Positions 1 to 19,468 of a stretch of DNA of 53,726 bases are shown piece after piece (the stretch's first letter is position 1; each line of letters starts with the position of its first letter). Source of the stretch: an uncultured Streptomycetaceae bacterium. Lineage in GTDB: Bacteria > Pseudomonadota > Gammaproteobacteria > Burkholderiales > SG8-41. Position numbers and translations under genes: made by a program. Below the pieces are notes generated by a model. The model was not told the DNA's origin. It ran no database searches and worked only from the letters and a program-made list of their open reading frames with translations. The stretch is from positions 1 to 53,726 of the forward strand of contig CAYYZZ010000001.1 of the NCBI GenBank assembly GCA_964476235.1, read 5' to 3'.

Positions 1-1
1 A

Positions 2-343
2 GCGCCCAAGCCGGCCACGGCACCCGCGCCGGCTCCGGCGCCCAAACCGGCTGCTGCGCCGGCAGCGGGCGAGGCGCAACCGCTCGCGGCGCTCCAGATC
101 CTGACCGGCGGGGCCGCGGGCAAGGAGATCGAGCTCATCAAGAATCTCACCACGCTCGGCAAGCCGGGCCTGCAGGTGGCGGTCATCACGCGGCGCCCGC
201 AGGGCTATTTCATCACCCACGTCGAGGGCGCCAGCTTCCCGGTGATCAACGGCAAGGCGCTCGACAACCAGGCCCGCCCGTTGAACGATCACGACGTGAT
301 CGAACTGGCCGGCGTGAAAATGGAATTTTTCATCAAGAAGTAA
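2..343 (+). CDS. FHA-domain protein, C-terminal fragment (5' end lies outside the window)
   Basis: Frame is open from the window edge to TAA at 341-343. A Pro/Ala-rich linker is followed by ...TLGKPGLQVAVITRRPQGYFITHVEG..VINGKAL..DHDVIELAGVKMEFFIKK, which looks like an FHA beta-sandwich C-terminus. It is absent from the ORF track because no start codon lies in the window. Confidence 0.55.
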   Translation, partial: APKPATAPAPAPAPKPAAAPAAGEAQPLAALQILTGGAAGKEIELIKNLTTLGKPGLQVAVITRRPQGYFITHVEGASFPVINGKALDNQARPLNDHDVIELAGVKMEFFIKK

Positions 344-378
344 ATAACAGCCGCCAGTCGGCCGGCAAATGGCGGGGT

Positions 379-421
379 CGGGCCGGATATCGGTGCAGTG
401 CCGGTGTCCGGCCTTCGTTTC
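379..421 (+). terminator. possible rho-independent terminator after the FHA gene
   Basis: GGGCCGGA (380-387) pairs with TCCGGCC (407-413) and is followed by TTCGTTTC. Confidence 0.4.
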
Positions 422-502
422 TGACAGTGACCGGGCGCACGCGCGGCGCCTGCTGGCGGCGGATGTCAACGGCGATAGGGCGGTAATGCAGGGGAAAAGA
501 GG

Positions 503-2761
503 ATGCTCGCGGCGATAAAGAAGCATCTGGCTCGGATCATCATCGGCCTCATCGTGGTGCTGGTCTTCCTCGTTCACGCCATCGGGCTGTGGGGGCTCCG
601 GCTTCCGCTGCTCGAAAAACTCGAGGCCATCATCTACGACACGCGGCTGCAGCTCACCATGCCGGGTGGCGTGGATACGCGCATCGTGATCCTCGACATT
701 GACGAGAAGAGCCTCGCCGAGAGAGAGAAGGGCGGCGAGGGGCGCTGGCCGTGGCCGCGCGACCGCATGGCGCTGCTGCTCGACAAGCTGTTCGACCAGC
801 ACGAGATCGCCGTGCTCGGCTTCGACGTGGTGTTTGCCGAGCGCGACGAGTCCTCGGGCATCCGCGTGCTCGAGCGCCTGGGCGCGCGGGAATTCCGCGA
901 TGTCCCGCAATATCAGTCGGTGCTGAAGCAGGTCAAGCCGCAGCTCGAGTACGACGACATCCTCGCGCGGAAGATGAAGGGCCGCGCAGTGGTAATGGGC
1001 TACATTTTTTCCGGCGAGGAGCAGGGGCTGGCGCCGAAGAAGGGCGTGCTGCCCCTGCCGATTTTCAGCGCTGAATCGTTTGCGGGCAGGCCGGTCCGGA
1101 CCACTTCCTGGAACGGCTACACGGCCAACCTCGAGGTGCTCCAGAGGAGCGCGGCAAGCGCGGGGCATTTCAACTCGCACACCGACGACGACGGCATCGT
1201 GCGGCGCGTGCCGATGCTGGCCGAATACCAGGGTGCCTACTACGAGCCGCTCTCGCTGGCGATGGTGCGCGTGCTGCTTGGCTCGCCGCCGGTCAAGGCG
1301 GCCGCCCCGGACCATGCGCTCGCCCCGGAGGGCTACCCCGATCTCGAATGGCTGGAGGTCGGCACGCTCAGGATCCCGGTGGACGACGCCGCGAGCGCGC
1401 TGGTTCCCTATCGCGGGCGCAAGAACAGCTTCAAGTATTACTCGATCGTGGACGTGATCAACGACCGTATCGACCCGTCCGAATTGAAGGGCAAGATCGC
1501 CATAGTGGGCACGACGGCCCCCGGGCTGCTCGACCTGCGGGCGACCCCGGTGGATGCGGTCTACCCCGGCGTCGAGGTGCACGCCAACATGATCGCGGGC
1601 ATACTCGACGGCAACATCAAGCAGCGGCCGCCTTACGTGGTGGGCGCCGAGTTCGTGCTGCTGCTGATATCGGGCCTGGTGCTGGCGCTGCTGCTCCCGC
1701 TGCTGAACCCGCTCAGGCTGACCCTGGTGACCATGCTGGTGCTGGTCGCGGTGCTGGCCGGCAACGTGATCGTGTTCGAGCACGGCCACCTGGTGCTGCC
1801 GCTTGCCTCGGGCGTGGTGATGATATTGCTGCTGTTCACGCTCAATATGGCCTACGGCTTTTTCATCGAGGCGCGCGGCGCGCGCCTCATCACCGGCTTG
1901 TTCGGCCAGTACGTGCCGCCCGAGCTGGTGGAGAAAATGGCGGAGAACCCCGAGCAGTTCAACATGGCGCCGCGCGCGGAGGAACTCTCGGTGCTGTTCT
2001 CGGACGTGCGCGGGTTCACGACCATCTCGGAGAGCCTCTCGCCCGAGGACCTGTCCAGTTACATCAACGAGTACCTCACCACGATGAGCCTGGTGATCCG
2101 CGAGCGGCACCGCGGTACGCTCGACAAGTACATCGGCGACGCGGTGATGGCGTTCTGGGGCGCCCCCGTGGCCGATCGCCAGCACGCGAGGAACGCCGTG
2201 CTGGCGGCCCTAGACATGCAGAAGGAAGCGGTGGATCTCAACGAGAAATTCAAGGCAAAAGGCTGGCCGACGTTCGCGATCGGCATCGGCGTGAATTCCG
2301 GCGTGGTGCGCGTCGGCGACATGGGCTCGCAGATCCGCAAGGCCTACACGGTCATGGGCGATGCAGTGAACACCGCATCGCGGCTCGAAGGCATCACAAA
2401 ACAGTATGGGGCTGATATTATTATCGGAGAAGGCACCCAGAAGCTGCTTTCGGGCTTCGTCTGCCGCGAGGTCGACCAGGTGCGGGTGAAGGGCAAGAAA
2501 GAGCCGGTTGCGATCTACGAGCCGTTCGGACTGGAGGGCCAGGTTGACCAGGCCAAGCTTGACGAGATTAAGTTATGGAATCAGGCGCTTAAGTACTATC
2601 GCTCGCAACAATGGGATCAGGCTGAGTTACAGTTGCTCAACCTCAAGAAGATGGAACCCGAGATCGAGTTATATGACATCTACCTCGAGCGGATCGCCAT
2701 CTTCCGCAAGGAGCCTCCGGGGGACGGATGGCATGGCGTGTGGAAATTTGAGACCAAGTGA
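503..2761 (+). CDS. CHASE2-domain membrane adenylate/guanylate cyclase (class III)
   Basis: 752-aa ORF with AAGAGG just upstream of the ATG. It has an N-terminal TM helix, a large extracytoplasmic region and a block of TM helices (CHASE2-type layout). The C-terminus carries class III cyclase motifs FSDVRGFTTISE, YIGDAVMAFWGAP and VNTASRLEG. Confidence 0.9.
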   Translation: MLAAIKKHLARIIIGLIVVLVFLVHAIGLWGLRLPLLEKLEAIIYDTRLQLTMPGGVDTRIVILDIDEKSLAEREKGGEGRWPWPRDRMALLLDKLFDQHEIAVLGFDVVFAERDESSGIRVLERLGAREFRDVPQYQSVLKQVKPQLEYDDILARKMKGRAVVMGYIFSGEEQGLAPKKGVLPLPIFSAESFAGRPVRTTSWNGYTANLEVLQRSAASAGHFNSHTDDDGIVRRVPMLAEYQGAYYEPLSLAMVRVLLGSPPVKAAAPDHALAPEGYPDLEWLEVGTLRIPVDDAASALVPYRGRKNSFKYYSIVDVINDRIDPSELKGKIAIVGTTAPGLLDLRATPVDAVYPGVEVHANMIAGILDGNIKQRPPYVVGAEFVLLLISGLVLALLLPLLNPLRLTLVTMLVLVAVLAGNVIVFEHGHLVLPLASGVVMILLLFTLNMAYGFFIEARGARLITGLFGQYVPPELVEKMAENPEQFNMAPRAEELSVLFSDVRGFTTISESLSPEDLSSYINEYLTTMSLVIRERHRGTLDKYIGDAVMAFWGAPVADRQHARNAVLAALDMQKEAVDLNEKFKAKGWPTFAIGIGVNSGVVRVGDMGSQIRKAYTVMGDAVNTASRLEGITKQYGADIIIGEGTQKLLSGFVCREVDQVRVKGKKEPVAIYEPFGLEGQVDQAKLDEIKLWNQALKYYRSQQWDQAELQLLNLKKMEPEIELYDIYLERIAIFRKEPPGDGWHGVWKFETK

Positions 2762-3525
2762 TGAAGCTGAGGGTACTCGGTTGCAGCGGCGGCATCGGCG
2801 GCGAGTTGCGCACCACGTCGTTCCTGCTCGATCACGATACGCTGATCGATGCCGGCACCGGGGTGGGCGATCTCTCGATCAACGAGCTCGCGCAGATCGA
2901 CCACGTCTTCGTCACGCACTCGCACATGGATCACGTGACCTCGATCCCGTTCATCGTGGACACCGTGGGCTGGATACGCGAGAAGCCGCTCACGGTGCAC
3001 GCGACCCGGGATACGCTCGCCATCCTGAAGGAGCATCTGTTCAACTGGAAGCTGTGGCCGGATTTCTCCCAGATTCCGGACGCGAAGAACCCGGTGATGC
3101 GTTTCGAGACGGTCGCAATGGGAAGTCCGGTGACATTGAACGGGCGCACCATCACGCCGCTTCCCGCCAATCACGTGGTGCCGGCGGTGGGCTACCGGCT
3201 CGATTCGGACAAGGCGAGCCTGGTGTTCACGGGGGATACCACCAGCAACGATGCGCTGTGGCCGATCGTGAACGAGATTGCCAACCTGAAGTACCTGATC
3301 ATCGAGACCGCGCTGTCGGATCGCGAACGGGATCTCGCTCGCAGGTCGAAGCATCTTTGCCCCAGCATGCTGGCGGAGGAGCTCGCGAAGCTGAAGCTCG
3401 CGCCGGAGATCTACATCACGCACCTAAAGCCGCGCGAATCCGAGCTCATCATGCAGCAGATCGCGGTCAGGGTGCAGGGGCGCAGGCCGCGAATGCTGCA
3501 GAACAACCATGTATTCGAATTTTGA
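2758..3525 (+). CDS. class II 3',5'-cyclic-nucleotide phosphodiesterase (metallo-beta-lactamase fold)
   Basis: 255-aa ORF whose ATG overlaps the cyclase stop (ATGA at 2758-2761). THSHMDHV (HxHxDH) and the overall layout resemble CpdP/PDE1-type class II phosphodiesterases. Confidence 0.75.
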   Translation: MMKLRVLGCSGGIGGELRTTSFLLDHDTLIDAGTGVGDLSINELAQIDHVFVTHSHMDHVTSIPFIVDTVGWIREKPLTVHATRDTLAILKEHLFNWKLWPDFSQIPDAKNPVMRFETVAMGSPVTLNGRTITPLPANHVVPAVGYRLDSDKASLVFTGDTTSNDALWPIVNEIANLKYLIIETALSDRERDLARRSKHLCPSMLAEELAKLKLAPEIYITHLKPRESELIMQQIAVRVQGRRPRMLQNNHVFEF

Positions 3526-3612
3526 TCGGGACGCATGGCTTGAGAGATACTGGAAATCAAGGTCGCAGTACGCTGTTATCCGCAGGATAGAAACCGACAG
3601 GGCGAGGTCACT

Positions 3613-5997
3613 ATGAGCACGGTATTCCAAAGCAAGCCGGTTGCGCAGGATAATCTGGCCGAAAAACTGCAGTTTCAGACGAAACTGCAGGCGGTCACCA
3701 ACAAGATCCATGCGACCAAGAACATCGACGAGATCATTCTCGAGCTGTCGCAGGAATTGTGCAATTTGTTCAACGCGGACCGGCTGACGATTTACCTCAC
3801 GAGCGAGGACAAGGGCTCGATCATCTCCAAGGTGAAAACCGGGCTCAACTCGTTCAAGGACATCAAGCTGCCGATCAACGAGCAGTCAGTCGCCGGTTTC
3901 GTCGCCTCCAGCAAGCGCACTATCAACATCCGGGATGTCTACGACGACGCGGAGCTGAAGTCCTACAGCCCGCACCTGAACTTCCTCAAGGCGGTGGACG
4001 CCAAGACCGGATACCGCACCAAGCAGATGCTGGTCTCGTCGGTGCTGGAGGCCAAGACCAAGGAGCTGATCGGGGTGGTGCAGATCATCAACTCCAAGAC
4101 CGGCCAGCCGTTTCCGCCCATGATGGAGGAGGGCGTGGTGCAGTTGTGCGAGACGCTCGCGATCGCTTTCCGCCAGCGCCAGGGCCCGATGATGCAGGTG
4201 CGCACCAAGTACGACGGGCTGGTGACCAACGCCGTGATCTCCGCGGAAGAACTGGAGTTGGCGCAGCGCTCGGCGCGGCGCAAGAACCTCGATCTCGAGA
4301 CCGTGCTGATCGATGAGTTCAAAGTCACCACGCAGGCACTGGGGGACGCCCTGTCGGCGTACTTCGGCATGCCGTACGAGCCGCACAAGACCGACCGCAT
4401 CAAACCGCCGGATATCCTGAAGAACATGAGCCGGGAATTCTGCCAGACCAACCACTGGATCCCGCTCGAGGACAGCAAGGAAGGCATCATCGTGATCGCC
4501 ATCGACCCGGAGAAGACCAAGGCGTCGAAGATGGTCAACAACGTCTATCCGAAGAGCAAGGTCGTCTACCGGGTCACGACCAATCGCGAGTTCGCTTCCA
4601 CGCTCGATCAGATGTTCGGCGGCGGTGGGATGGGGGCGATGGCAGACTCTGGCGATATCGGCGATATTTTGGGGACGCTGGATGACGACAGCGATGCTCA
4701 CATCGAGGGCATGTCGGAGGACGTCGCATCCGCTGCCAACGACAACGAGCTGGTGAAGCTCGTCAACAAGGTCATCATCGACGCCTACCAGCAGGGCGCA
4801 TCGGACATCCACATCGAGCCCTATCCGGGCAAGGGCAAGACCGAGATCCGCTTCCGCAAGGATGGCGACCTGGTGCCGTACATCCAGGTGCCGGCAAGCT
4901 ACCGCAATTCGCTTGCGGCACGGCTCAAGATCATGTGCGATCTTGATATCTCCGAGCGCCGCAAGCCGCAGGACGGCAAGATCAAGTTCAAGAAATTCGG
5001 GCCGCTGGACATCGAGCTGCGGGTGGCGACCATCCCCACGCAAGGCGGGGTGGAGGACATCGTGATGCGGATACTCTCCGCCGGCGAGCCGCTGCCGCTC
5101 GACAAGATGGGGTTTTCCAAGCGCAATCTGACACTGTGCAAGCAGGAGGCCGACAAGCCGTATGGCCTGTTCTTCGTGTGCGGCCCCACCGGCTCGGGCA
5201 AGACCACCACGCTGCATTCGGTGCTCGGCTACCTCAACACGCCGGACATGAAGATCTGGACCGCGGAGGACCCGGTCGAAATCACGCAGAAAGGCTTGCG
5301 CCAGGTGCAGATGAATCCCAAGGCGGGACTCACCTTTGCGATCGCCATGAGAGCCTTCCTGCGAGCCGATCCGGACGTGATTATGGTCGGGGAAATGCGC
5401 GACAAGGAGACGGTCTCGACCGGCATCGAGGCCTCGCTCACCGGCCACCTGGTGTTCGCCACGCTGCACACCAACAGCGCGCCGGAATCCATCACCCGCC
5501 TGCTCGACATGGGCATGGACCCGTTCAACTTCGCCGACGCCCTGCTCGGCATTCTCGCCCAGCGTCTCGCCCGGCGGCTGTGCAAGTGCAAGCAAGCGCA
5601 TGTCGCGACCACCGAGGAAATCCAAGCGCTGATGGAGGAGTACTCTCTCGAGTTGACACACACGGAAACCTGGAAAAAGGATCCCGAGGCCGCGCGCGAG
5701 AAGCTGTACGAGGACTGGGCGAAGGAGTTTGGCAACGACAAGGGCGAAATTGTGCTCCACACCGCCAAGGGGTGCGAAGTATGCGGCAATACCGGCTACA
5801 AGGGCCGCTTGGGGCTGCACGAACTCTTGGTCGGCACCGACCGCATCAAGAAGCACATCCAGGAGCATGCGCGCGTGGCGGAGATATTCGCGACCGCCCT
5901 CGAGGACGGCATGAGGACGCTCAAGCAGGACGGCATCGAGAAGGTATTGCTGGGGATCACCGACATCCAGCAAGTGCGCGCGGTGTGCATCAAGTAG
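3613..5997 (+). CDS. GspE/PilB-family secretion/pilus ATPase with N-terminal GAF domain
   Basis: 794 aa. The N-terminal ~190 aa are GAF-like (..KTGYRTKQMLVSSV...LIGVVQIINSK). A T2SSE_N-like region follows, then Walker A GPTGSGKTT, DPDVIMVGEMRD, TGHLVFATLHTN and a C-terminal Cys cluster (CKCK...CEVCGNTGYKGR). Confidence 0.9.
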   Translation: MSTVFQSKPVAQDNLAEKLQFQTKLQAVTNKIHATKNIDEIILELSQELCNLFNADRLTIYLTSEDKGSIISKVKTGLNSFKDIKLPINEQSVAGFVASSKRTINIRDVYDDAELKSYSPHLNFLKAVDAKTGYRTKQMLVSSVLEAKTKELIGVVQIINSKTGQPFPPMMEEGVVQLCETLAIAFRQRQGPMMQVRTKYDGLVTNAVISAEELELAQRSARRKNLDLETVLIDEFKVTTQALGDALSAYFGMPYEPHKTDRIKPPDILKNMSREFCQTNHWIPLEDSKEGIIVIAIDPEKTKASKMVNNVYPKSKVVYRVTTNREFASTLDQMFGGGGMGAMADSGDIGDILGTLDDDSDAHIEGMSEDVASAANDNELVKLVNKVIIDAYQQGASDIHIEPYPGKGKTEIRFRKDGDLVPYIQVPASYRNSLAARLKIMCDLDISERRKPQDGKIKFKKFGPLDIELRVATIPTQGGVEDIVMRILSAGEPLPLDKMGFSKRNLTLCKQEADKPYGLFFVCGPTGSGKTTTLHSVLGYLNTPDMKIWTAEDPVEITQKGLRQVQMNPKAGLTFAIAMRAFLRADPDVIMVGEMRDKETVSTGIEASLTGHLVFATLHTNSAPESITRLLDMGMDPFNFADALLGILAQRLARRLCKCKQAHVATTEEIQALMEEYSLELTHTETWKKDPEAAREKLYEDWAKEFGNDKGEIVLHTAKGCEVCGNTGYKGRLGLHELLVGTDRIKKHIQEHARVAEIFATALEDGMRTLKQDGIEKVLLGITDIQQVRAVCIK

Positions 5998-6005
5998 CGC
6001 ATGGC

Positions 6006-7661
6006 ATGAACGATCCCGGCCGTTCCCGCGGTGGGGACGACTTGCTCAAGCGTCTCGAGCAGCTCAACCATATTGGCATTGCCCTCTCGCAGGAGAGGGA
6101 CATCACCAAGCTGCTCGAGGCGATCCTCGTCGCCGCCAAGGACGTCACCCACGCCGACGGCGGCACGCTCTACCGCATGACCGAGGAGAAGACGCTCAAG
6201 TTCGAGATCATCCGCAACGACACGCTCGGCATCGCGATGGGCGGCACCACCGGCGTCGAGATCCCGTTCTACCCGATCTACCTGTTCGACAAGGAAGGCA
6301 CGCCGGTCAAGACCATGGTGGCCGCCTACGCGGTGCACAACGACCAGTCGGTCAATATCGCCGACGCGTATACCGCGGAAGGCTTCGATTTCACCGGCAC
6401 AAAGAATTTCGACAAGAAAACCGGCTATCGGTCGACGTCTTTCCTCACCGTGCCGATGAAGAACCACGAGGGCGAGATCATCGGCGTGCTGCAGCTGATC
6501 AATTCCAAGGACCCGGCGACTGGCGAGGTAGTCGCATTTTCCGACGCCGACCAGCACCTGTCCGAATCGCTCGCCTCGCAGGCAGCTATCGCGCTCACCA
6601 ACCGGCTGCTGATCAACCACCTGGAGAACCTGTTCGAGTCGTTCATCGGGCTGATCAACGCCGCGATCGACGACAAGTCGCCCTACACCGGCGGGCACTG
6701 CCAGCGCGTGCCGATGCTCACCATGATGCTGGCGGAGGCAGTCAACGACTGCAAGGTCGGCCCGCTCCGGAATTTCGCCATGACTGACCGCGATCGCTAC
6801 GAGTTGAAGATCGCGGGGCTGCTGCACGATTGCGGCAAGGTCACCACCCCGGTGCACGTGGTGGACAAGGCGACCAAGCTGCAGACCATCTTCGACCGGA
6901 TCGCGCTCGTCGACACGCGCTTCGAGGTGGTGAAGCGCGACACCGAGATCGCGGCCCTGCGAGGGCGGCTAAAGGCGCTGGAGAAGGGGGCCGCCGACGA
7001 CGGCGCTCTCGGAAGGGAGGTCGAATCGAGGTTTAAGACGATCGAAGACGACCGGGAATTCCTGCGGCGCGCCAATGTCGGCGGGGAAGCGATGAATGAG
7101 GAGGATGTCGCCAGGGTGCAGGAGATCACCAAGCGCTATCGCTGGCGCAACACGGACGGAGACAGTGCAGACTTCCTGAGCGACGAGGAGCTGAAGAATC
7201 TTACCATCCGCTACGGCACGCTGACCCCGGATGAACGCAGTATCATCAACCACCACATCGAAGTCACGATCCAGATGCTAGAAGCCCTGCCGTGGCCCAA
7301 GCACCTGAAGAACGTGCCCGAGTACGCCGGGGGGCACCACGAGCGCATGGACGGCAAGGGCTATCCGCGCGGGCTCACGCGTGAGCAGATGTCGGTCCAG
7401 GCGCGCTGCATGGGCATAGCCGACATCTTCGAGGCGCTGACCGCCAAGGACCGCCCGTACAAGAAAGGCAAGACGCTCACCGAGTCGCTTACCATACTCG
7501 GAAAGTTCAAGCTGAACGGGCACATCGACCCGGACCTCTTCGATGTCTTCATGTGGGAAAAAATCTACGAGAAGTACGCCAAGCAATTCCTCGATCCCGA
7601 CCAGATCGACGAAGTCGACGTCACGAAAATCCCGGGCTACGTTGCCCGGCCCGCGCGCTAG
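6006..7661 (+). CDS. GAF-domain HD-GYP phosphohydrolase (putative c-di-GMP phosphodiesterase)
   Basis: Start set at ATG 6006, 9 nt after the ATPase stop. The upstream part of track ORF 5136..7661 is an out-of-frame shadow over the ATPase gene. The N-terminus is GAF-like (KKTGYRSTSFLTVPM...IIGVLQLINSK), followed by HD (LLHDCGK) and HHERMDGKGYPRGL. Confidence 0.9.
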   Translation: MNDPGRSRGGDDLLKRLEQLNHIGIALSQERDITKLLEAILVAAKDVTHADGGTLYRMTEEKTLKFEIIRNDTLGIAMGGTTGVEIPFYPIYLFDKEGTPVKTMVAAYAVHNDQSVNIADAYTAEGFDFTGTKNFDKKTGYRSTSFLTVPMKNHEGEIIGVLQLINSKDPATGEVVAFSDADQHLSESLASQAAIALTNRLLINHLENLFESFIGLINAAIDDKSPYTGGHCQRVPMLTMMLAEAVNDCKVGPLRNFAMTDRDRYELKIAGLLHDCGKVTTPVHVVDKATKLQTIFDRIALVDTRFEVVKRDTEIAALRGRLKALEKGAADDGALGREVESRFKTIEDDREFLRRANVGGEAMNEEDVARVQEITKRYRWRNTDGDSADFLSDEELKNLTIRYGTLTPDERSIINHHIEVTIQMLEALPWPKHLKNVPEYAGGHHERMDGKGYPRGLTREQMSVQARCMGIADIFEALTAKDRPYKKGKTLTESLTILGKFKLNGHIDPDLFDVFMWEKIYEKYAKQFLDPDQIDEVDVTKIPGYVARPAR

Positions 7662-7680
7662 AGCCCGGCGCGCCCCTGGT

Positions 7681-7995
7681 TCATTTGACCGACATCCGGA
7701 TGACCAGGTCCTTGACCAGGGCCTCGACAAATTGCTCGCCGTATCCCAGCTCTTTCAGTTCCCAACGGAATGTATTGCCCAGCCGCGCCGTCTTGTAGAT
7801 GCCGAGCTTATGCTGTTTCTTGAAATCGACGGCTTTCTTCAGCGATTCTTCCAGGACCGACGCCACTTTCTTCTGCGAGACTTTTCGCGCGCCGTCGGCG
7901 CCAGGTACCGGGGGGTAGTATCTTGCTATTTCCGCAACCAGCGACCTGGCGAATTCGTCGACCTGTTTTCCAGAAACCGAACCGAAGAAATTCAT
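7681..7995 (-). CDS. hypothetical protein (104 aa)
   Basis: Clean ORF convergent with the HD-GYP gene and coding-like codon usage. I recognise no motif. Confidence 0.55.
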   Translation of the reverse strand: MNFFGSVSGKQVDEFARSLVAEIARYYPPVPGADGARKVSQKKVASVLEESLKKAVDFKKQHKLGIYKTARLGNTFRWELKELGYGEQFVEALVKDLVIRMSVK

Positions 7996-8094
7996 TGAGG
8001 CTGCTCGCGAGAAAGGGCCGTTGCATTATGGTGCGTCCTGCCTGGACGGTCAATACAACGGGCGCCGTCCGCGGCCGGAACCGGTAATACGGCA

Positions 8095-9852
8095 ATGTTG
8101 GGCAATCTTCTCAAGTCGCTGCTGCAACATCCCCTGCGCGGCCGGCGCGCAAGGCGCGCGAAGTCGCTGTTCGAAACGGGGATGGCGCAGCAGCAGTCGC
8201 AGGATTACGAAAACGCGCGCCGCAGCTTTGAGCAGTCGGTCGATCTCGATCCCGATAACGCGGATGCCCATCTCTGGCTCGGAATAATGCTTGCCAGGGA
8301 CAGCCAGTCCTATGCCGCATCGGTACGGCATCTCGAGCGCGCGCTTACCCTGAATCCCGCCATCGAAAACGGCTGGATCGATCTTGGAACCGTCTATTAT
8401 TTCCAGCGCGACCTCGTCAAGGCAGGCGCAGGTTTTCGCGCGGCGCTTGCCGCGGATCCCGACTCGGTAATGGCCCGGCTCAATCTTGGGGTTGTCCTCA
8501 AGGAAAGCGGCCGCCTCGAGGAAGCGCTCGGTCACCTGCGGCGCGTCTATGATCTGGCGCCGGAGGCGGAAGGAACCTTGCGAAATCTGGTGGCGACGCT
8601 GATCGAGGCTGACCTGTGCGATGAGGCACAGTCCGTCGCCGCCGGAGCCGTCCAGCGCAATCCGTCCAGTTATGAAACGCACAAGTATCATGGATTGGCG
8701 CATCAGAAGCTGCACGACCCGGTGCGGGCGCTTGCCTGTTACGACACGGCGCTAAAGATGCGCGCGGATGATGCCGAGCTTCATGACCATCGCGGCGTCG
8801 CGTTCCTCGAGCTCGGGAAGCTGCCGGAAGCGATCGAATGCTATGAGCGCGCGCTGGCGCTGCGACCGGATTTCTCGCTATCGGCTTTTCATCGGGCCCT
8901 GACGCGGCTCCTGCTCGCGGACTACCGGAATGGGTGGGACGACTACGAATTGCGCCAGCTCAACCAGGACTACCTGCAGCGTCAGGGCGCGTACCCGGGC
9001 TGGGATGGATCGTCTCTTGCCGGCCGCACCATCCTGATTTATCGCGAACAGGGGCTGGGTGATGAAATCATGTTTGCCTCTTGCCTGCCGCAGCTAATAG
9101 GGGCGGCTGGGCATTGCATCATCGAATGCGAGCCCCGGTTACTCGATCTCTTCCGCCGCTCGTTCCCGGCCGCGACAGTATATGCATCGACCCCGGACGG
9201 CAGCTTGCCTCAGGAGATAGCGGGGCGCGATATCGACCTCTCGATTCCCGCGGGCAGCATACCGCGCTTTCTCCGGAGGGACCTTGGCGATTTTCCCCGC
9301 CACAATGGTTATCTCAAGGCCGATCCGGCGCGTGTCGCCCACTGGCGCGAGCGGCTGTCGCAACTGGGGCCCGGCCTCAAGGTGGGCGTCTCCTGGGCGG
9401 GCGGTGTGCGCAAGACGCGACGGGCGTTACGCTCCCTCCCGCTCGATCGATGGCTGCCGATACTCCAGACGCCCGGTGCGCGATTCATCAGCCTTCAGTA
9501 CACCGCCGATGCCGGTGAAGCGATCGCCGCATTGCAGAACCGGCACGGCGTGCGGATCGAACATTGGACCGAAGCCGTCGATGATTACGGAGAAACCGCG
9601 GCGCTGGTAACCTCTCTTGATCTCGTGATCAGCGTGTGCACGGCCGTTATCCATCTGGGCGGGGCGCTCGGCCGGCCGGTGTGGGTGATGGCGCCCTATA
9701 GCCCCGAATGGCGCTACGGGTTCTCGGGCGATACTATGCCGTGGTATCCCTCGGTGCGAGTCTTCAGACAGCCCGCGTTCGGCGAGTGGGAGCCGGTGAC
9801 GGCGTCGGTCGCCGCCGAATTGGGGCACCTGGCCGGCGCGTCCGCCGGCTGA
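8095..9852 (+). CDS. TPR-repeat protein with C-terminal GT9 (heptosyltransferase)-like domain
   Basis: 585 aa. The N-terminal half is made of TPR-like repeats (e.g. YENARRSFEQSVDLDPDNADAH). The C-terminal half has ILIYREQGLGDEIMF, a signature I associate with glycosyltransferase family 9. Confidence 0.7.
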   Translation: MLGNLLKSLLQHPLRGRRARRAKSLFETGMAQQQSQDYENARRSFEQSVDLDPDNADAHLWLGIMLARDSQSYAASVRHLERALTLNPAIENGWIDLGTVYYFQRDLVKAGAGFRAALAADPDSVMARLNLGVVLKESGRLEEALGHLRRVYDLAPEAEGTLRNLVATLIEADLCDEAQSVAAGAVQRNPSSYETHKYHGLAHQKLHDPVRALACYDTALKMRADDAELHDHRGVAFLELGKLPEAIECYERALALRPDFSLSAFHRALTRLLLADYRNGWDDYELRQLNQDYLQRQGAYPGWDGSSLAGRTILIYREQGLGDEIMFASCLPQLIGAAGHCIIECEPRLLDLFRRSFPAATVYASTPDGSLPQEIAGRDIDLSIPAGSIPRFLRRDLGDFPRHNGYLKADPARVAHWRERLSQLGPGLKVGVSWAGGVRKTRRALRSLPLDRWLPILQTPGARFISLQYTADAGEAIAALQNRHGVRIEHWTEAVDDYGETAALVTSLDLVISVCTAVIHLGGALGRPVWVMAPYSPEWRYGFSGDTMPWYPSVRVFRQPAFGEWEPVTASVAAELGHLAGASAG

Positions 9853-9960
9853 GGGATTCTTGATTGCGCAATCCCCGTTGGCGGGTGAGAGCCGGTGTGG
9901 AATGCCACAGCCGGATAATCTGACGCGTCATCCAATGGCCGCTTGAAATCCAGAACCATC

Positions 9961-12942
9961 ATGACCCAATCCATTCCCCGCAGCTGGTTCTTCGCGCTGT
10001 TCACGTTCTCGGGGTTCGCCGGCCTGATCTACGAGTCGATCTGGAGCCATTACATCAAGCTTTTCCTCGGCCACGCTGCCTATGCGCAGACGCTGGTGCT
10101 CGCGATTTTCATGGGCGGCATGGCGCTCGGCTCCTGGTTGTGCAGCCGCTATTCGGCGCGCTGGCGCAACCTGTTGATAGGCTATGCGGCCGCCGAGGCA
10201 GCGATCGGGCTCTGCGCGCTCGTGTTCCACCGGGTATTCGTGGCGGCCACCGATGCCGCCTACGACAGCATCATGCCGGGGCTCGGCAATCCGCACGCGG
10301 TAAACGCATTCAAATGGGCGCTGTCCGCGCTGTTCGTGCTGCCGCAATCGGTGCTGCTCGGGATGACATTCCCGCTGATGAGCGCCGGATTGATCCGCGG
10401 CTATCCCGACAGCACCGGCGGCACCATCGCGATGCTCTACTTCACCAACAGCCTGGGGGCGGCGGCGGGGGTGCTCGCGAGCGGCTTCGTGCTGATTGCC
10501 TGGGTCGGCCTGCCGGGCACGATCCTTACGGCGGGCATACTCAACATCCTGCTCGCGCTGCTCGTATGGGCGCTGGCAAAGAACATGGAATTTGCTCCCC
10601 CGATCCCGGCACGGATCGAGTCCGGCGAGCGCAATTCCCAAGGCTACGCGCTGATGCTGGGGGTGGCCCTGCTGACGGGCGCGGCTTCCTTTATTTACGA
10701 GATCGGCTGGATCCGGATGCTCAGCATGGTGCTCGGGAGCTCTACCCATGCCTTCGAGCTCATGCTGTCCGCCTTCATCCTCGGGCTCGCGTTTGGCGGC
10801 CTCTGGATCAAGCGACGCATCGATGGCATTGCCGTTCCCGAGCGCTACCTCGGCGTAGTTCAGGTCGCAATGGGGTTGTTCGCGCTCCTGACCCTGGTGG
10901 TCTATGGCTACACGTTCGAGATCATGCAATGGCTGCTCGGGTCGCTGGCACGGACCGATTCCGGCTACGTGGCGTTCAATATCGGCAGTCACCTGATTGC
11001 GCTGCTGGTGATGTTCCCGGCCGCGTTCTGCGCCGGCATGACGCTGCCGCTGATCACTCATGTCCTGCTGCGGCGGGGGACAGGGGAGCGCGCGATCGGA
11101 GCGGTTTACGCCGCGAATACCATCGGCGCGATAATCGGCGTGTTCGCCGCAGTGCATGTCGGCCTGCCGGTGCTGGGGCTCAAGGGCCTGATATCGGCCG
11201 GGGCGGCCGTGGACATCGGGCTCGGGTTGTTGCTGCTGTGGTGGACCGCAAAAGGCAGCCGCCTGCCGGCCTATGCGACTGCCGTTGGCGTGGCCGGCGT
11301 CGTGGCGACCCTCGTCTTCGTGCAACTCGACCCGTACAAGATGGCCTCCGGCGTCTACCGCCATGGCGCGTTGCTGACCCATGACAAGGCCGAGATCCTG
11401 TTTCACCACGACGGCAAGACCGCGACCGTCAACCTGGTCAGAACAGCGGAGCGCATATCCATTCACACCAACGGCAAATCCGATGCCGCGCTCCATCCCG
11501 GCGGCGGGGTTGCGCCGGACGAAGCGACGATGGTCCTGACCGCGGCGCTGCCTCTCGCGTACCAGCCCGGCGCCGGGACGGCGGCCAATATCGGCTTCGG
11601 GTCCGGGCTTTCCAGCCACGTGCTGCTCGCGTCGGGCACGATACGCGAGGTCGACACCATCGAGATCGAATCGGCGATGGTGGAGGCCGCCCGCGGCTTC
11701 AGCCCGCGCAACGACAACGTCTACCGGGACCCGCGCAGCCACATCCACATCGAGGACGCGAAGACCTTCTTTTCAATGCACAACAAGCGCTATGACATCA
11801 TCGCCTCGGAGCCGTCAAACCCCTGGGTGAGCGGGGTAGCGAGCCTGTTCACCGACGAGTTCTACCGGCGCGTCAAGCGGCACCTCAATGACGATGGCGT
11901 ATTCGTGCAGTGGATGCAGCTCTACGAGATCAGCCCGGCCCTGGTCGCGTCGGTCTTCAAGGCGCTCTCGCGGGAGTTTTCCGACTATGCGGCCTATACC
12001 GCCAACAATGTCGATCTCATCATCATCGCTAAAAACGGAGGTACGCTGCCACCCCTGTCCGCCGCGGTGTTTCAGCATCCGCGCCTCGCGGCCGAACTCG
12101 CCCGCATACAGATCAAGAGCATCGCGGACCTGGAGTTACATCGGGTCGGCGGCAAGAGGGCGTTGCAACCGTACTTCGACAGTTTTCCGATTGCGGCCAA
12201 CTCGGATTTTTTCCCGGTGCTCGATCTCAACGCCGCCAAGGCCCGTTTCATGGGCGCGAGCGTGACCGAAGCCATCAATAATCTCGCGATGACCCCGGTT
12301 CCGGCGCTCGAGATGCTCGGCGGGGAGACAGCCCGTGGCAGCGTTACCGGCGCGGCTCGGCCGTGGCTCAGGAAAGCCGGGCTCACGCAGCAGGCCCTGG
12401 CGATTCGCGCTTATTTGCTTGAAGGCCGCCACGAGCAGCTTGATCGCGTTCCGCTGATATCCAGGAGCGACGTGCAACTGGTGCGGATGCTTGCGATCGA
12501 GTGCGCGAATTCGCGGAGCGCCGTCTCGGCGGATCAACTGTACGAAATCGCCATTGCCCTGGTGCCGTTCCTCACGCGAGATGAGTTGCGCGGGGTGTGG
12601 GATAAATTGAAGACCTCGCCCTGCGCCGCGCGGTTGGGGGAGCCGCAGCGGACCTGGCTTGCGCTGTTCGCGGCCGTGAGCGAGCGCGACGCGGGCAATA
12701 TGGTCCAGTTGGCGGAAAAACTGCTGAGGCAGGATGCCGCGCGCAAGGACTATCTGCTGGGGGCCGCTATCACCGGGCACCTCGCCCTTAACGAGCACGA
12801 CAAGGCCGTCAAGTTGTGGAAAGAATTCGCCGGCAGAATCACGAGTTCCCCGAATAACATGCTGCTCGATCTCCTGCGTGGACACCTTTTTTCGCGCCCG
12901 CCGGCAAGCGCGATGGGGCAGGCCGGGAATACCCCCAAGTGA
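9961..12942 (+). CDS. fused polytopic membrane / spermidine synthase-like protein with long helical C-terminal domain
   Basis: The track ORF starts at TTG 9943; ATG 9961 is preferred. About 12 hydrophobic helices are followed by a SpeE-like methyltransferase fold (GFGSGLSSHVLL...YDIIASEPSNPWVSG). A further ~350 aa Ala/Leu-rich region follows. Confidence 0.75.
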   Translation: MTQSIPRSWFFALFTFSGFAGLIYESIWSHYIKLFLGHAAYAQTLVLAIFMGGMALGSWLCSRYSARWRNLLIGYAAAEAAIGLCALVFHRVFVAATDAAYDSIMPGLGNPHAVNAFKWALSALFVLPQSVLLGMTFPLMSAGLIRGYPDSTGGTIAMLYFTNSLGAAAGVLASGFVLIAWVGLPGTILTAGILNILLALLVWALAKNMEFAPPIPARIESGERNSQGYALMLGVALLTGAASFIYEIGWIRMLSMVLGSSTHAFELMLSAFILGLAFGGLWIKRRIDGIAVPERYLGVVQVAMGLFALLTLVVYGYTFEIMQWLLGSLARTDSGYVAFNIGSHLIALLVMFPAAFCAGMTLPLITHVLLRRGTGERAIGAVYAANTIGAIIGVFAAVHVGLPVLGLKGLISAGAAVDIGLGLLLLWWTAKGSRLPAYATAVGVAGVVATLVFVQLDPYKMASGVYRHGALLTHDKAEILFHHDGKTATVNLVRTAERISIHTNGKSDAALHPGGGVAPDEATMVLTAALPLAYQPGAGTAANIGFGSGLSSHVLLASGTIREVDTIEIESAMVEAARGFSPRNDNVYRDPRSHIHIEDAKTFFSMHNKRYDIIASEPSNPWVSGVASLFTDEFYRRVKRHLNDDGVFVQWMQLYEISPALVASVFKALSREFSDYAAYTANNVDLIIIAKNGGTLPPLSAAVFQHPRLAAELARIQIKSIADLELHRVGGKRALQPYFDSFPIAANSDFFPVLDLNAAKARFMGASVTEAINNLAMTPVPALEMLGGETARGSVTGAARPWLRKAGLTQQALAIRAYLLEGRHEQLDRVPLISRSDVQLVRMLAIECANSRSAVSADQLYEIAIALVPFLTRDELRGVWDKLKTSPCAARLGEPQRTWLALFAAVSERDAGNMVQLAEKLLRQDAARKDYLLGAAITGHLALNEHDKAVKLWKEFAGRITSSPNNMLLDLLRGHLFSRPPASAMGQAGNTPK

Positions 12943-13069
12943 CGTTTTTCGTCACTTATTGACCGAGGCCGAACACGTAATCAAGCCTCGGAGACCTGAA
13001 ACAGCCGGAAAAGGTGGAAAGGGTTCGAGAGGGCGGCAATTTGCCACGTTTTTTGCCGCTGGGGATAGA

Positions 13070-13084
13070 TGGCATGAAGTTTGC
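13070..13084 (+). promoter_or_regulatory. sigma54 (-24/-12) type promoter upstream of pilin 1
   Basis: TGGCAT-GAAGT-TTGC matches the TGGCAC-N5-TTGC spacing exactly and sits ~70 nt upstream of ATG 13154. Major pilin genes of Pseudomonas-type T4P are RpoN/PilR dependent. Confidence 0.55.
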
Positions 13085-13153
13085 GTTCGCAGAGGGAGCG
13101 AGCAATGAAAATTGCTTGATTTTTAGATGGTTAACCACAAAAGGAGTGTCTCA

Positions 13154-13585
13154 ATGAGTTACGTTCAAAAAGGCTTTACGCTGATCGAACTGATGATCGT
13201 GGTCGCGATCATCGGCATTCTGGCGGCGGTGGCGATCCCGGCGTACCAGGACTACATCGCGCGCGCGCAAGTGTCGGAAGCGGTGAGTCTGACGGCGGGC
13301 GGCAAGACCCCGTTGGCGGAGTTCTTCGCCGACAAGGGTGTCTGGCCGTCGACCGCGAGCGATGTCATGGGCAATATCGCTGGCAAGTACGTGAGCACGA
13401 TCACGATTATTGCCGGTGCTAGCACCAACACCGCGATCAGCCTGGAAGCGCGGATCATGAACGTCGGCGTCAACTCCGCCATCACCGGGGCGACGCTGAT
13501 CTTGACCAGTTTAGACGGCAAGGTATGGGATTGCACGTTGGGTACCGTTGGCGTCAAGTACCGTCCTGCGGCGTGCCGTACGTAA
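13154..13585 (+). CDS. pilA: type IVa major pilin (copy 1)
   Basis: AAGGAG lies 8 nt upstream of ATG 13154. The protein starts [34 protein letters not shown], a class III prepilin leader with G/F cleavage site and conserved E5. The C-terminus has a Cys...Cys disulfide loop (WDCT...PAACRT). Confidence 0.92.
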
Positions 13586-13609
13586 CAGCATGACCGGCGT
13601 TTGAATACG

Positions 13610-13637
13610 AAGCCCGCCGCGAGGCGGGCTTCTTTTC
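13610..13637 (+). terminator. rho-independent terminator after pilin 1
   Basis: AGCCCGCC-GCGA-GGCGGGCT stem-loop followed by TCTTTTC. Confidence 0.8.
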
Positions 13638-13687
13638 GAGCAAGCCTGATTCGAAATCAGGATCGAGAATTGAAGGGGACGATCAGG

Positions 13688-14113
13688 ATGCTACAAAGAG
13701 GCTTTACATTGGTCGAACTGATGATCGTGGTCGCGATCATCGGCATTCTGGCGGCGGTGGCGATCCCGGCGTACCAGGACTACATCGCGCGCGCGCAAGT
13801 GTCGGAAGCGGTGAGCCTGACTACCAGCAGCAAGACGCCATTGTCCGAGTTCTTCGGCGACAAGGGTATCTGGCCGTCGACCGCGAGCGATGTCATGGGC
13901 AATATCTCCGGCAAGTACGTGAGCGCGGTCACGATCACGGCCGGCAACGGCACCACCGGCCAGGTCAGCCTGGAAGCGCGGATCAAGAACGTCGGCGTCA
14001 ACACCGCCATCGCGGGCGGGACGCTGATATTGACCAGCTCCGACGGCAAGGTGTGGGATTGCACGACAGGGACTATTAGCGCCAAATACCGTCCCGCGGC
14101 GTGCCGGCTGTAA
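13688..14113 (+). CDS. type IVa major pilin (copy 2, tandem paralog)
   Basis: ATG 13688 gives [32 protein letters not shown]. It is near-identical at the nucleotide level to copy 1 over the first ~150 nt, then alternates conserved and diverged blocks. It has the same C-terminal WDCT...PAACRL loop. Confidence 0.9.
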
Positions 14114-14141
14114 TTAATCGCTTGACTGGCATGTGAACAAG

Positions 14142-14171
14142 AAGCCCGCCGCGAGGCGGGCTTCTTTTTTT
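14142..14171 (+). terminator. rho-independent terminator after pilin 2 (duplicate of 13610-13637)
   Basis: Identical AGCCCGCC-GCGA-GGCGGGCT stem followed by a T run. Confidence 0.8.
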
Positions 14172-14537
14172 GAGCGGGGCTCGAAGAGAATCAGCCGGAA
14201 TGCAATTACTCGACGCTGCCGGCTTCAGGTTGCCGCTGAGCCACCCGACATCCACCGACGGCAACTTCGTCCTGGGATACTTCATCCCACAGGCAACGTG
14301 CTCGATGGGATGCGCCCTTTCCTGCAGAACATCGAACGGATTCGCAGCCATGCTTTGCCGCAGGCGCCGGTAAAGGGGGAATAAACGATGAGACCGGGAG
14401 CGGAGTGCCGCTGCCCTGCGCCGCCATGTCCGGCACGGCGGCGCGGGTTTGCGGGGCATGGCGTGCCTTGCTATCCTTCGGGACAGTCGCTGCCCCGCCT
14501 GGAAGCCCGAGACAGCCGGATAACCTCCTGAAGCCAC

Positions 14538-15194
14538 ATGAGTTACAGCCGCGCCCATCCCAGCTCGCGTTATCTCGAGCTGCAAAATCTTTACCGCACC
14601 ATGCACGAGCGGGGAGAAAGCTTTCTCGGTATGCCGCCCGAGCAGACTTTTCCGGGCTCAAGCTTGCGCCCGCAGGCCGAGCGCATCAAGCGGCTCATAG
14701 TCCAGACCGGGGCGCTCGCCGTGCTCGATTACGGCAGCGGCAAGGGCAGGCAGTACGAATCGAATGCCATCCGCGAGGACGCGGGCAAAGCGTGGCCGAG
14801 CGTGATTGATTTCTGGGGCGTGGATGAAGTGGTGTGCTACGACCCGTGCTACGCGCCGTACTGCAAGCTGCCCAGCGGCACGTTCGACGGTGTGATCTGC
14901 ACCGACGTGCTCGAGCATTGTCCGGAAGAGGACATCCCCTGGATCATCGAGGAGATCTTTTCCTACGCAACCCGGTTCGTGTTCGCCAACGTCGCTTGTT
15001 ACCCGGCGCGCAAGCGGCTGCCCACCGGTGAGAACGCGCATTGCACCATCAGGCCGGTGGAGTGGTGGAGAACGCTGATCGAGGGCATCGCGGAGCGGCG
15101 CCCTGGTGTCGTCTGGGAGGTGTGGATCCAGTCGCGCGTGGACGGGCCGCAGGGTGCGCAGTACGTCGAAGAAAAGTTGGGTAACGCAACGTGA
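14538..15194 (+). CDS. class I SAM-dependent methyltransferase
   Basis: 218 aa with motif I VLDYGSGKG and DGVICTDVLEH. Confidence 0.75.
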   Translation: MSYSRAHPSSRYLELQNLYRTMHERGESFLGMPPEQTFPGSSLRPQAERIKRLIVQTGALAVLDYGSGKGRQYESNAIREDAGKAWPSVIDFWGVDEVVCYDPCYAPYCKLPSGTFDGVICTDVLEHCPEEDIPWIIEEIFSYATRFVFANVACYPARKRLPTGENAHCTIRPVEWWRTLIEGIAERRPGVVWEVWIQSRVDGPQGAQYVEEKLGNAT

Positions 15195-17670: not shown

Positions 17671-17763
17671 GAAGCATCCGGTCTCGGGGGGCGTGCGTTG
17701 AACGGCGATCCGGCCGTCCACTCGAGCGCGCGCAGATAATAAAACGACGCTCGTGCGCCCGTT

Positions 17764-18402
17764 TTATCGCTTGTTGACGGGGGATTGCGGGTCTATCAGG
17801 TACGCCACGACGTGGGTGATCTGCTCCGGCGTGAGGTGGCCGCTCACGCCCAGGCGCGGCATGTTCGAGCACGGTGAGTAGGCCCACGCGTTGTAAATCC
17901 TCTCGTAAGTGAGCCTGGCAACCGCCTCCGAGTTGCCGCGTTGCGCGCCGTAGCCGGACAGGCTCGGCCCGATGTTGCCCACGTTGAACTCCTTGGGGTC
18001 GAGCACGTGGCAGTTGGAGCAGAGCGCGCCGTTTTCCTTGGCTTTTTCCACCTGGCCCCCGACGATGCGTCCGCCCTGTCCGGCGAAGGCGAGCCGCGCG
18101 CCCGTTTTCCAGTCGCCGGCGAGCCCGCCGGAGACGGGGTACTGGATCGATTCGCGGGAAAGGCGCACGACTTCCGCCGCTTCTTCCTGGGTGAGCTTGG
18201 CCCCGCCGATCTTGGTGCAGATCTGCTGCGCCCGGTCCTGTACCGCCCGTCGCGTGAGTGACTCCGGCATCCCCGGATAGCTCCCGGACACCATCTTCTC
18301 GCCGATCTGGCGAGTGGTTTTCTCATCCGGGAATGATGCGCAGCTGACCGCCATCACCAGCGGCACGCCGAGCGCGGCCCACGTCGCCATCCTGATTCCC
18401 AT
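17764..18402 (-). CDS. soxX: sulfur-oxidation c-type cytochrome SoxX
   Basis: 212 aa with a signal peptide and a single CSNCH heme site. It lies between soxA and soxB. Confidence 0.85.
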   Translation of the reverse strand: MGIRMATWAALGVPLVMAVSCASFPDEKTTRQIGEKMVSGSYPGMPESLTRRAVQDRAQQICTKIGGAKLTQEEAAEVVRLSRESIQYPVSGGLAGDWKTGARLAFAGQGGRIVGGQVEKAKENGALCSNCHVLDPKEFNVGNIGPSLSGYGAQRGNSEAVARLTYERIYNAWAYSPCSNMPRLGVSGHLTPEQITHVVAYLIDPQSPVNKR

Positions 18403-18411
18403 GTCGGCCTC

Positions 18412-19224: not shown

Positions 19225-19253
19225 GATTTTCTCCTCCTGCTGTTGTTATCGGG

Positions 19254-19464: not shown

Positions 19465-19468
19465 CCGG

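Follow-up and report, generated by a model that had tools for sequence, protein, structure and literature searches.

Why should a motor ATPase of the PilB/GspE family carry a GAF domain and be encoded among cyclic-nucleotide enzymes, with no pilus or secretion machine beside it? This question is raised by positions 1-7661 (+ strand) of a 53.7-kb stretch of DNA from an uncultured bacterium (contig CAYYZZ010000001.1; hereafter the window, meaning the whole stretch that was analysed). An earlier reading made from the letters alone (the sequence-only reading) had described there five consecutive genes whose products would make and destroy a cyclic nucleoside monophosphate (cNMP), sense it through two GAF domains and take phospho-Thr input through an FHA protein. 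Open reading frame listing and translation place the five genes on the + strand at 2-343, 503-2761, 2758/2761-3525, 3613-5997 and 6006-7661, and the Pfam domain models CHASE2, Guanylate_cyc, PDEase_II, GAF, MshEN (=T2SSE_N), T2SSE and HD/HD_5 were all found in them. The comparative evidence presented below strongly supports the core of that idea, but the module proves to be larger and the ATPase less of an orphan than had been thought. The explanation that we consider best, and to which as a whole we give about even chances, is that this part of the window represents two-thirds, at the 3' end, of a seven-gene signalling operon conserved in uncultured, sulfur-oxidizing Burkholderiales/Rhodocyclales, in which cyclic AMP (cAMP) would gate both a PilB-type motor and an HD-GYP protein.

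Relatives of the module were collected by a one-genome-per-species scan with a profile of the N-terminal (GAF plus MshEN) region of the ATPase, built from a six-sequence alignment, which returned at least 596 relatives; the best 80 loci were kept with 10 kb on each side, and their gene order was read by tblastn of the module proteins. These best 80 of at least 596 come almost entirely from metagenome-assembled genomes (MAGs) of Burkholderiales/Rhodocyclales, with carriers that include Sulfuritalea, Pelomicrobium and the complete genome of Candidatus Desulfobacillus denitrificans. In nearly all of about 65 species-level genomes, and in nearly every locus with enough flanking sequence, the genes lie on one strand in the order kinase, PP2C, FHA, cyclase, phosphodiesterase, ATPase and HD-GYP, and this order holds down to 65% ATPase identity (range 65-92%) and 53% cyclase identity. 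The close ATPase homologues (81-93% identity) all have the architecture GAF-MshEN-T2SSE, and their contigs read CHASE2-Ser/Thr kinase, PP2C, FHA, CHASE2-cyclase, phosphodiesterase, ATPase and then GAF-HD-GYP. The window starts inside the FHA gene, with the kinase and PP2C genes outside it, which is why only five genes had been noticed; those five are real, but in the relatives the CHASE2-Ser/Thr kinase and PP2C genes are added upstream to give a block of seven. At least three different upstream contexts were seen (CoA-transferase plus formyltransferase in about 27 loci, succinyl-CoA ligase in 9 and other genes in the remainder), and with upstream genes that change from one sub-clade to another, what has been kept is the block and not merely a syntenic region. 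The gene order is conserved beyond chance; the sequence-only reading had staked itself on the block being a unit in other genomes, and it is one. A variant in 15 Rhodocyclales-type loci (e.g., L057, L069 and L074) carries an extra gene for a cNMP_binding-rhodanese protein between the phosphodiesterase and ATPase genes (8834-9901 in L076), and the independent gain of this third cNMP receptor adds weight to the view that the operon is a cNMP circuit.

The first question that such a circuit poses is which nucleotide is made. The gene at 503-2761 (+) encodes, as had been proposed, a CHASE2-transmembrane class III (IIIb-like) cyclase, predicted to be an adenylyl cyclase (CHASE2, 199 bits; Guanylate_cyc, PF00211, 87.6 bits). 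Its motifs FSDVRGF, DKYIGD and YTVMGDAVNTASR align with those of CyaB and OaPAC, and its specificity pair is Lys (in DKYIGD) and Thr (in AYTVMGD), as in Pseudomonas aeruginosa CyaB and photoactivated adenylyl cyclases (OaPAC), which are among its best solved relatives; in the guanylyl cyclase Cya2 the corresponding residues are Glu and Gly. The residues by which class III adenylyl cyclases are recognized (two Asp, Asn/Arg and Lys with Asp/Thr) are all present, and none of them (the Asp pair that binds metal, Lys, Thr, Asn and Arg) varies among 66 orthologues (67 sequences). The Lys/Thr pair makes cAMP the predicted product. The sensor domain of CyaB is MASE2, unlike the CHASE2 domain found here.

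The next gene (2761-3525, +) encodes a predicted cyclic-nucleotide phosphodiesterase of the metallo-beta-lactamase fold (class II/Apyc1-like). An ATGA overlap with the cyclase gene had been claimed at 2758, but the sequence there is GTGATG: the junction reads AAG TGA TG and allows either a GTG start at 2758 (4-nt overlap) or an ATG start at 2761, which has one base in common with the stop codon of the cyclase and corresponds to the start used in relatives. The protein matches Lactamase_B_2 (66 bits) and PDEase_II (38.8 bits against a cut-off of 23.7), the latter over 61 residues only, and the HxHxDH motif (HSHMDH) is invariant in 66 orthologues. Against NF041851 the protein scores 49 bits where the cut-off is 400, and RNase Z models score similarly, so that with family scores as modest as these its substrate is deduced mainly from context. 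An orthologue matches Anti-Pycsar_Apyc1, a family of cyclic-mononucleotide phosphodiesterases. The same match could be enlisted, together with PADLOC matches of the cyclase to PycC models (101 bits) and of the kinase to PD-T4-6 models, for a Pycsar-like anti-phage cyclic-nucleotide defence in which the cyclase is the sensor and the downstream proteins are effectors. That reading we find scarcely credible and have rejected, as the PADLOC matches are generic and at the level of shared domains, the block includes no TIR, transmembrane or other toxic effector, the cyclase specificity residues are of the adenine type, and inheritance is vertical, with a fixed chromosomal place by pilA and housekeeping genes across an order-level clade, unlike that of defence islands.

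What could respond to the predicted cAMP is suggested by the two proteins encoded next, each of which has a GAF domain that, judged by its sequence, is of the cNMP-binding type. The best solved relatives of the ATPase GAF are those of Anabaena CyaB2 (1ykd, 4.5e-26), whose tandem GAFs bind cAMP, followed by PDE2A GAF-B (1.7e-10) and the GAFs of other cNMP-regulated phosphodiesterases; the GAF of the HD-GYP protein matches those of PDE5, CyaB2 and PDE2A. An AlphaFold2 (AF2) model of ATPase residues 20-350 reached a predicted local distance difference test score (pLDDT) of 85, and the top Foldseek matches of its GAF were those of PmGH, CyaB2 and PDE2A/5A/10A/6, all of the cNMP type, with the cAMP-bound GAF of Leptospira Lcd1 further down the list; the modelled fold thus resembles that of cAMP/cGMP-binding GAFs. 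In the ATPase GAF, S92, A98, D129, T136, G154 and N160 are invariant in the family and Q157 is nearly so, and these residues lie in the stretches S-x-AG, D-x-x-TG-x-x-T and GV-x-Q-x-x-N that are common to cNMP GAFs. Across the clade both GAF proteins keep S-x-AG, D-x-x-TGYR(T/S) and G-V-x-Q-x-I-N without exception (D-x-x-TGYRT-x-Q in the ATPase), and several GAF positions remain invariant or nearly so even in family members that are only 22-44% identical there. From the PDE2A and CyaB2 structures, we take these invariant stretches to be the probable nucleotide pocket.

The HD-GYP protein (6006-7661, +) is a predicted phosphodiesterase of the PmGH/Tlr0485 type. Its GAF, HD and HD_5 domains were all recovered by Pfam (HD_5, 143 bits), as expected, and the HD motif LLHDCGK and the HHExxDGxGYP motif GGHHERMDGKGYPRGL are intact and invariant in 63 orthologues (64 sequences). 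Its best solved relatives are PmGH (4mcw) and then V-cGAP3 (5z7c), and because the latter is a cGAMP phosphodiesterase the substrate could differ from cyclic di-GMP (c-di-GMP). Tlr0485 of Thermosynechococcus is a GAF-HD-GYP c-di-GMP phosphodiesterase that is activated by cAMP; the window protein has the GAF-HD-GYP architecture and the intact HD and HHExxDGxGYP motifs in common with Tlr0485 and PmGH, but differs from them in an insertion of about 85 aa between its HD and GYP halves and in being co-operonic with a presumed source and sink of cAMP.

Our data suggest that cAMP would bind both GAF domains. The GAFs might instead not sense the cyclase product at all, binding cGMP or another small molecule or serving only in dimerization, while cAMP acts elsewhere, the rival receptors being the cNMP_binding-rhodanese protein or a kinase-cNMP_binding fusion at 22597-24018 in the window. 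GAF domains do bind many different ligands, the ligand of PmGH, which is the closest HD-GYP structure, is not known, and further cNMP_binding proteins occur both in the operon variant and in the window. We nevertheless regard this alternative as quite improbable, since the likeness in sequence and fold is specifically to cAMP/cGMP-binding GAFs, the shared GAF motif stretches are invariant, two GAF proteins directly follow a cyclase and a phosphodiesterase in about 65 genomes, and Tlr0485 provides a precedent.

The ATPase that would receive this signal (3613-5997, +; 794 aa; T2SSE, 377 bits) is a GAF-MshEN-N1/N2-T2SSE protein of the PilB/GspE family, with the GAF domain at about aa 25-190, a degenerate MshEN domain at aa 198-340 and the ATPase core at aa 375-790. 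The full set of GspE/PilB catalytic boxes noted earlier is present, and its Walker A (GPTGSGKTT), Asp box (EDPVE), Walker B (DVIMVGEMRD) and His box (TGHLVFATLHTN) are invariant in 69 sequences. The best NCBIfam model is that of PilB (TIGR02538), yet the score of 484.1 bits lies under the cut-off of 675.65, as does that for GspE (TIGR02533; 436 bits, cut-off 630.25); no gsp genes were seen near the ATPase in the window or in the related loci, and the closest solved proteins are Myxococcus xanthus PilB, Thermus PilF and Geobacter PilB. The MshEN domain is recognizable (PF05157, 40 bits against a cut-off of 23.1, residues 251-338), and the c-di-GMP motif of such domains consists of two copies of the 24-residue pattern RLGxx(L/V/I)(L/V/I)xxG(L/V/I)(L/V/I)xxxxLxxxLxxQ. 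When aligned to M. xanthus PilB, RLG is replaced by TKY in motif I and DLE in motif II, and the closing Q by A or Y; the hydrophobic core is kept, the degenerate form is conserved in 69 orthologues, and the motif model NF053729 gives 18.2 bits against a cut-off of 38. The MshEN domain thus appears degenerate as a c-di-GMP receptor, and the GAF domain has the look of a substitute input in a family of motors that elsewhere respond to c-di-GMP.

[quoted passage not shown] Like Vibrio cholerae MshE and the c-di-GMP-binding PilB PA14_29490 (PMC5013675), the window ATPase would be a hexameric motor with an N-terminal input for a nucleotide second messenger, and it has an MshEN-N1-N2-CTD core and the ATPase motifs, but it has lost the MshEN c-di-GMP motifs and has an extra N-terminal GAF as the presumed sensor, its predicted ligand is cAMP and not c-di-GMP, and its gene sits in a cyclase/phosphodiesterase operon and not among pil, msh or gsp genes. 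The domain order itself has been catalogued: Supplementary Table 4 of Wang et al. (2016; PMC5013675) lists 'GAF - MshEN - T2SSE' for Geobacter lovleyi Glov_1971, with no reference, ligand or function, as well as 'MshEN - T2SSE - cNMPbind', and the main text discusses neither. As listed there, Glov_1971 resembles the window ATPase in domain order, and it differs in that the entry mentions no operon embedding.

How far the fusion extends beyond the betaproteobacterial clade was assessed by an exhaustive profile-free search of 1.8 billion cluster representatives. Many full-length GAF-ATPases were found at 37-55% identity, at least 50 of the top 150 clusters (50% identity) having a recognizable GAF, and some members of this wider family carry two or three GAF domains. 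In an analysis of ATPase-core identity by the unweighted pair group method with arithmetic mean (UPGMA) and nearest neighbours, 38 of 50 GAF-bearing ATPases had a GAF-bearing nearest neighbour; as this clustering is only partial, we do not claim a single origin of the fusion. One locus of the wider family (L084; 7494-8351, - strand) holds a GAF-MshEN-T2SSE ATPase of 49% identity beside two small PilZ genes, a hint that in other lineages PilZ adaptors may bring in c-di-GMP.

If the ATPase is a working motor, its machine has to be sought outside the module. Two tandem type IVa pilin genes (13127-13585 and 13601-14113, +; Pfam Pilin and N_methyl) lie downstream in the window and are followed by a strong terminator (14139-14166), and no PilT gene and, in agreement with the earlier statement that none adjoins the ATPase, no PilC/GspF, secretin or PilM-Q gene was found in the 53.7 kb. 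The pilin genes had been described as about 7 kb away behind unrelated genes, and that is their placement here, but in relatives the pilin gene is very often the next gene after HD-GYP: a pilin gene on the same strand, its product bearing a class III signal sequence, begins 150-430 nt past the HD-GYP stop codon in about 20 genomes and 1-6.5 kb past it in about 13 more loci, the window included, among the roughly 52 loci whose downstream sequence extends for at least 6 kb. The label of orphan is therefore only partly apt, in that pilus-machine genes are indeed lacking nearby but most relatives have the module in linkage with the locus of the type IVa major pilin. This association favours a type IV pilus client for the ATPase, and makes the type IV pilus machine the likely one.

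What lies between the module and the pilin genes shows how this linkage is organized. A conserved 104-aa gene with no Pfam family (7681-7995, -) runs towards the HD-GYP gene and sets the limit of the + strand operon at its 3' end; it was found in about 35 loci (tblastn, 34-80% identity), in many of them directly after HD-GYP and convergent, and in the window a promoter-like site lies upstream of it at 8053-8025 (-). Beyond it is a variable insert (8095-12942, +; Pfam) with two genes, one for a TPR protein (8095-9852) and the other (9943-12942) for a protein of 999 aa that has a spermidine-synthase-like domain; the insert is present only in some relatives (L004, L005 and L040), while elsewhere Wzy_C or TPR genes or nothing is found. 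A sigma-54-type promoter, TGGCAT-N5-TTGC, lies at 13070-13084 (+), 42 nt upstream of the first pilin gene, and is the only match in the window; the motif precedes 37 of 43 pilin genes in related loci, mostly 54-75 nt upstream. With its own sigma-54 promoter and the convergent 104-aa gene in between, pilA and the module appear to be separate transcription units that have stayed together. The spermidine-synthase-like/methyltransferase domain of the 999-aa protein is central, and in L004, L005 and L040, too, a gene for this protein stands beside the pilin genes; the window has another spermidine-synthase-like gene, which starts at 52870.

The same linkage admits a simpler account, in which the ATPase is the cell's cognate and only PilB, the other type IVa pilus genes are encoded elsewhere, the GAF domain is a lineage-specific add-on and the adjacency to pilA is the common pilA-pilB linkage. 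The solved relatives (PilB and PilF) and the best-scoring NCBIfam model agree with it, as do the pilin gene directly downstream in many genomes and the absence of a second PilB from the 53.7-kb window. The score of 484 bits, however, is under the equivalog cut-off of 675.65, pilC or pilD is adjacent in none of about 80 loci, in other phyla the genes of this family stand alone, at a distance from pilus genes, and the tightly conserved co-operonic cyclase, phosphodiesterase and second GAF protein argue that the ATPase depends on them. We consider this account unlikely, although it deserves to be taken seriously; it opposes the idea of an orphan or accessory motor and not necessarily that of cAMP gating.

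Several observations weigh against a cAMP operon that gates a pilus motor. Ligand binding, enzymatic regulation and phenotype are predictions from sequence, and in the AF2 model the final GAF helix is joined to MshEN by a short linker of low confidence (predicted template modelling score, pTM, 0.52). The cyclase or the HD-GYP gene has been lost from a few loci. The cyclase-less loci contain no N runs and at least one of them (L046, 7682-9033) retains the cyclase as a decayed 86-aa fragment of the catalytic domain, with the other operon genes intact, which points to gene loss and not to a different architecture. The distant GAF-ATPases (37-55% identity) whose surroundings could be read, one of them from Nitrospirota (Candidatus Nitrobium versatile), are lone genes in housekeeping contexts without a cyclase, phosphodiesterase or pilin gene nearby, so that embedding with a cyclase, phosphodiesterase and kinase is specific to this betaproteobacterial clade. 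About 19 of the roughly 52 loci have no pilin gene within 7 kb downstream, the pilin genes have a sigma-54 promoter of their own, variable genes stand between them and the module in many genomes (the window is an example), and for these reasons the pilin linkage could be inherited synteny. No platform, secretin or alignment-complex gene was found in the window, nor in about 80 loci within the 10 kb on either side of the ATPase gene.

Part of this evidence would suit an ATPase that powers no pilus, and that serves instead an unrecognized secretion or filament machine or acts mainly as a nucleotide-dependent signalling protein, the link to pilA being inherited synteny. Platform and secretin genes are lacking nearby, the distant homologues are orphans, one of them beside two PilZ genes, the pilin genes are under an independent sigma-54 promoter, and M. 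xanthus PilB has been proposed as a signalling protein in exopolysaccharide control (PMC5544727). The strict conservation of all motor motifs, on the other hand, fits a working ATPase, and the adjacency to pilin genes recurs across sub-clades with different flanking genes. On balance we judge it distinctly unlikely that the ATPase has no pilus client, and a cAMP-gated motor of the type IV pilus remains our preferred reading.

The upstream half of the operon may feed a second kind of signal into the circuit. The 3' end of the FHA-protein gene (2-343, +), whose start lies outside the window, encodes a second, FHA-like domain, and this in-window fragment alone does not support the FHA call that had been made (Yop-YscD_cpl, E=0.017, below cut-off; FHA, 15.8 bits against a cut-off of 33.2). 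Full-length orthologues (262-303 aa) have a clear N-terminal FHA domain (71.9 bits), in a part of the protein that here lies beyond the window, followed by a Pro/Ala-rich linker and the C-terminal FHA-like domain seen in the window. In almost all loci, genes for the Ser/Thr kinase, PP2C and FHA proteins lie upstream of the cyclase. Between the FHA gene and that of the cyclase there is a gap of 159 nt in the window, 70-330 nt and strongly structured in Burkholderiales-type loci and 9-19 nt in Sulfuritalea-type loci, and in the window it contains a putative GC-rich hairpin at 380-414 (+), terminator- or attenuator-like, with a 16-bp stem, 9 GC pairs and a weak T tail; regulation may act at this gap, where the phospho-Thr half of the operon meets the cAMP half. 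In the H1 type VI secretion system, PpkA-PppA-Fha1 form a threonine-phosphorylation switch that acts post-translationally. Our triad resembles it in having a membrane Ser/Thr kinase, a PP2C and an FHA protein encoded beside a component of a secretion-type machine, but the machine and the targets are others, and here the triad is coupled to a predicted cAMP circuit. By this analogy the kinase, phosphatase and FHA protein would add a phospho-Thr layer, most plausibly tuning the cyclase or recruiting the ATPase. The fusion at 22597-24018 (+), about 15 kb downstream of the module, is a Ser/Thr kinase with a C-terminal cNMP_binding (CAP-type) domain, a further predicted cyclic-nucleotide receptor that likewise ties cNMP to Ser/Thr phosphorylation.

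The remainder of the window consists of the two pilin genes, sox genes and housekeeping genes. The sox cluster (15952-20620, -) encodes a SoxB-like 5'-nucleotidase/metallophosphatase, a cytochrome c, SoxA and SoxY, and its presence indicates that the host is a sulfur oxidizer. The closest relative of the module is in a RIFCSP 'Betaproteobacteria bacterium' MAG. An Rfam scan of positions 1-15000 gave no riboswitch or other RNA element, the single microRNA match being at chance level.

Taken together, the parts can be arranged in a mechanism. An envelope signal would cause the CHASE2 cyclase to make cAMP, and the phosphodiesterase would reset the signal. The cAMP-bound HD-GYP protein would hydrolyse c-di-GMP (or a related dinucleotide), as in Tlr0485, and in the ATPase the GAF domain would take over the regulatory role that MshEN has in MshE and PilB, so that cAMP would license the activity of the hexamer. 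The likeliest client would be the machine of a type IVa pilus, whose PilC platform and PilMNOPQ would be encoded elsewhere, and for which the ATPase might serve as a cAMP-gated extension motor alongside or instead of a canonical PilB. The net logic would be that an envelope signal raises cAMP, and with it pilus extension, while lowering c-di-GMP.

To our knowledge, the second messenger so far known to control pilus and secretion motors is c-di-GMP, which acts by way of MshEN or PilZ/FimX, and cAMP control is known only at the transcriptional level. A 2024 review of PilB regulation treats c-di-GMP, PilZ/FimX, Pil-Chp/cAMP/Vfr and the occurrence of several PilB homologues, TfpB among them, and a GAF-fused PilB was not found in its passages on cAMP, architecture and paralogues. 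A close parallel to the proposed route is the Pil-Chp-CyaB-cAMP-Vfr system of P. aeruginosa, which runs from surface or envelope signals through a class IIIb cyclase, CyaB, with the same Lys/Thr pair to type IV pili (PMC11656802). There cAMP acts transcriptionally through Vfr, whereas here it is predicted to act directly on the motor and on c-di-GMP turnover. Literature searches that combined GAF with PilB, GspE and T2SSE returned no functional study, only the 2016 catalogue entry, and those on CHASE2 with FHA and PP2C found no study of the operon. The sequence-only reading had called such a module functionally undescribed, and no functional study was indeed found, but the GAF-MshEN-T2SSE architecture was already listed in 2016 and the cAMP-activated GAF-HD-GYP protein Tlr0485 has been characterized. 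The HD-GYP arm is thus of a known type and the ATPase arm is a catalogued but unstudied architecture, while cAMP gating of a PilB-type motor, the operon itself and its placement beside pilA appear to be undescribed.

A bolder generalization, which we find possible but would not favour, is that GAF-fused PilB-family ATPases are a widespread class of cAMP-gated motors, catalogued before but not studied, and that in this clade one of them is joined with its own CHASE2 adenylyl cyclase and phosphodiesterase, an HD-GYP enzyme activated by cAMP and the kinase/PP2C/FHA triad into a self-contained three-layer phospho-Thr/cAMP/c-di-GMP switch that directly licenses pilus extension. Such a switch would be post-translational, and would differ both from transcriptional control by Vfr/CRP and from c-di-GMP control through MshEN, PilZ or FimX. 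If the proposed mechanism is correct, a motor with its own cAMP-type GAF sensor would add a direct route from cAMP to the motor, and the operon would constitute a hard-wired node of cross-talk from cAMP to c-di-GMP in environmental sulfur oxidizers. The strict co-conservation of the seven genes offers a compact set of proteins whose predicted interactions are directly testable, and for the many lone GAF-bearing PilB-like ATPases that are scattered across phyla the mechanism would provide a first functional handle.

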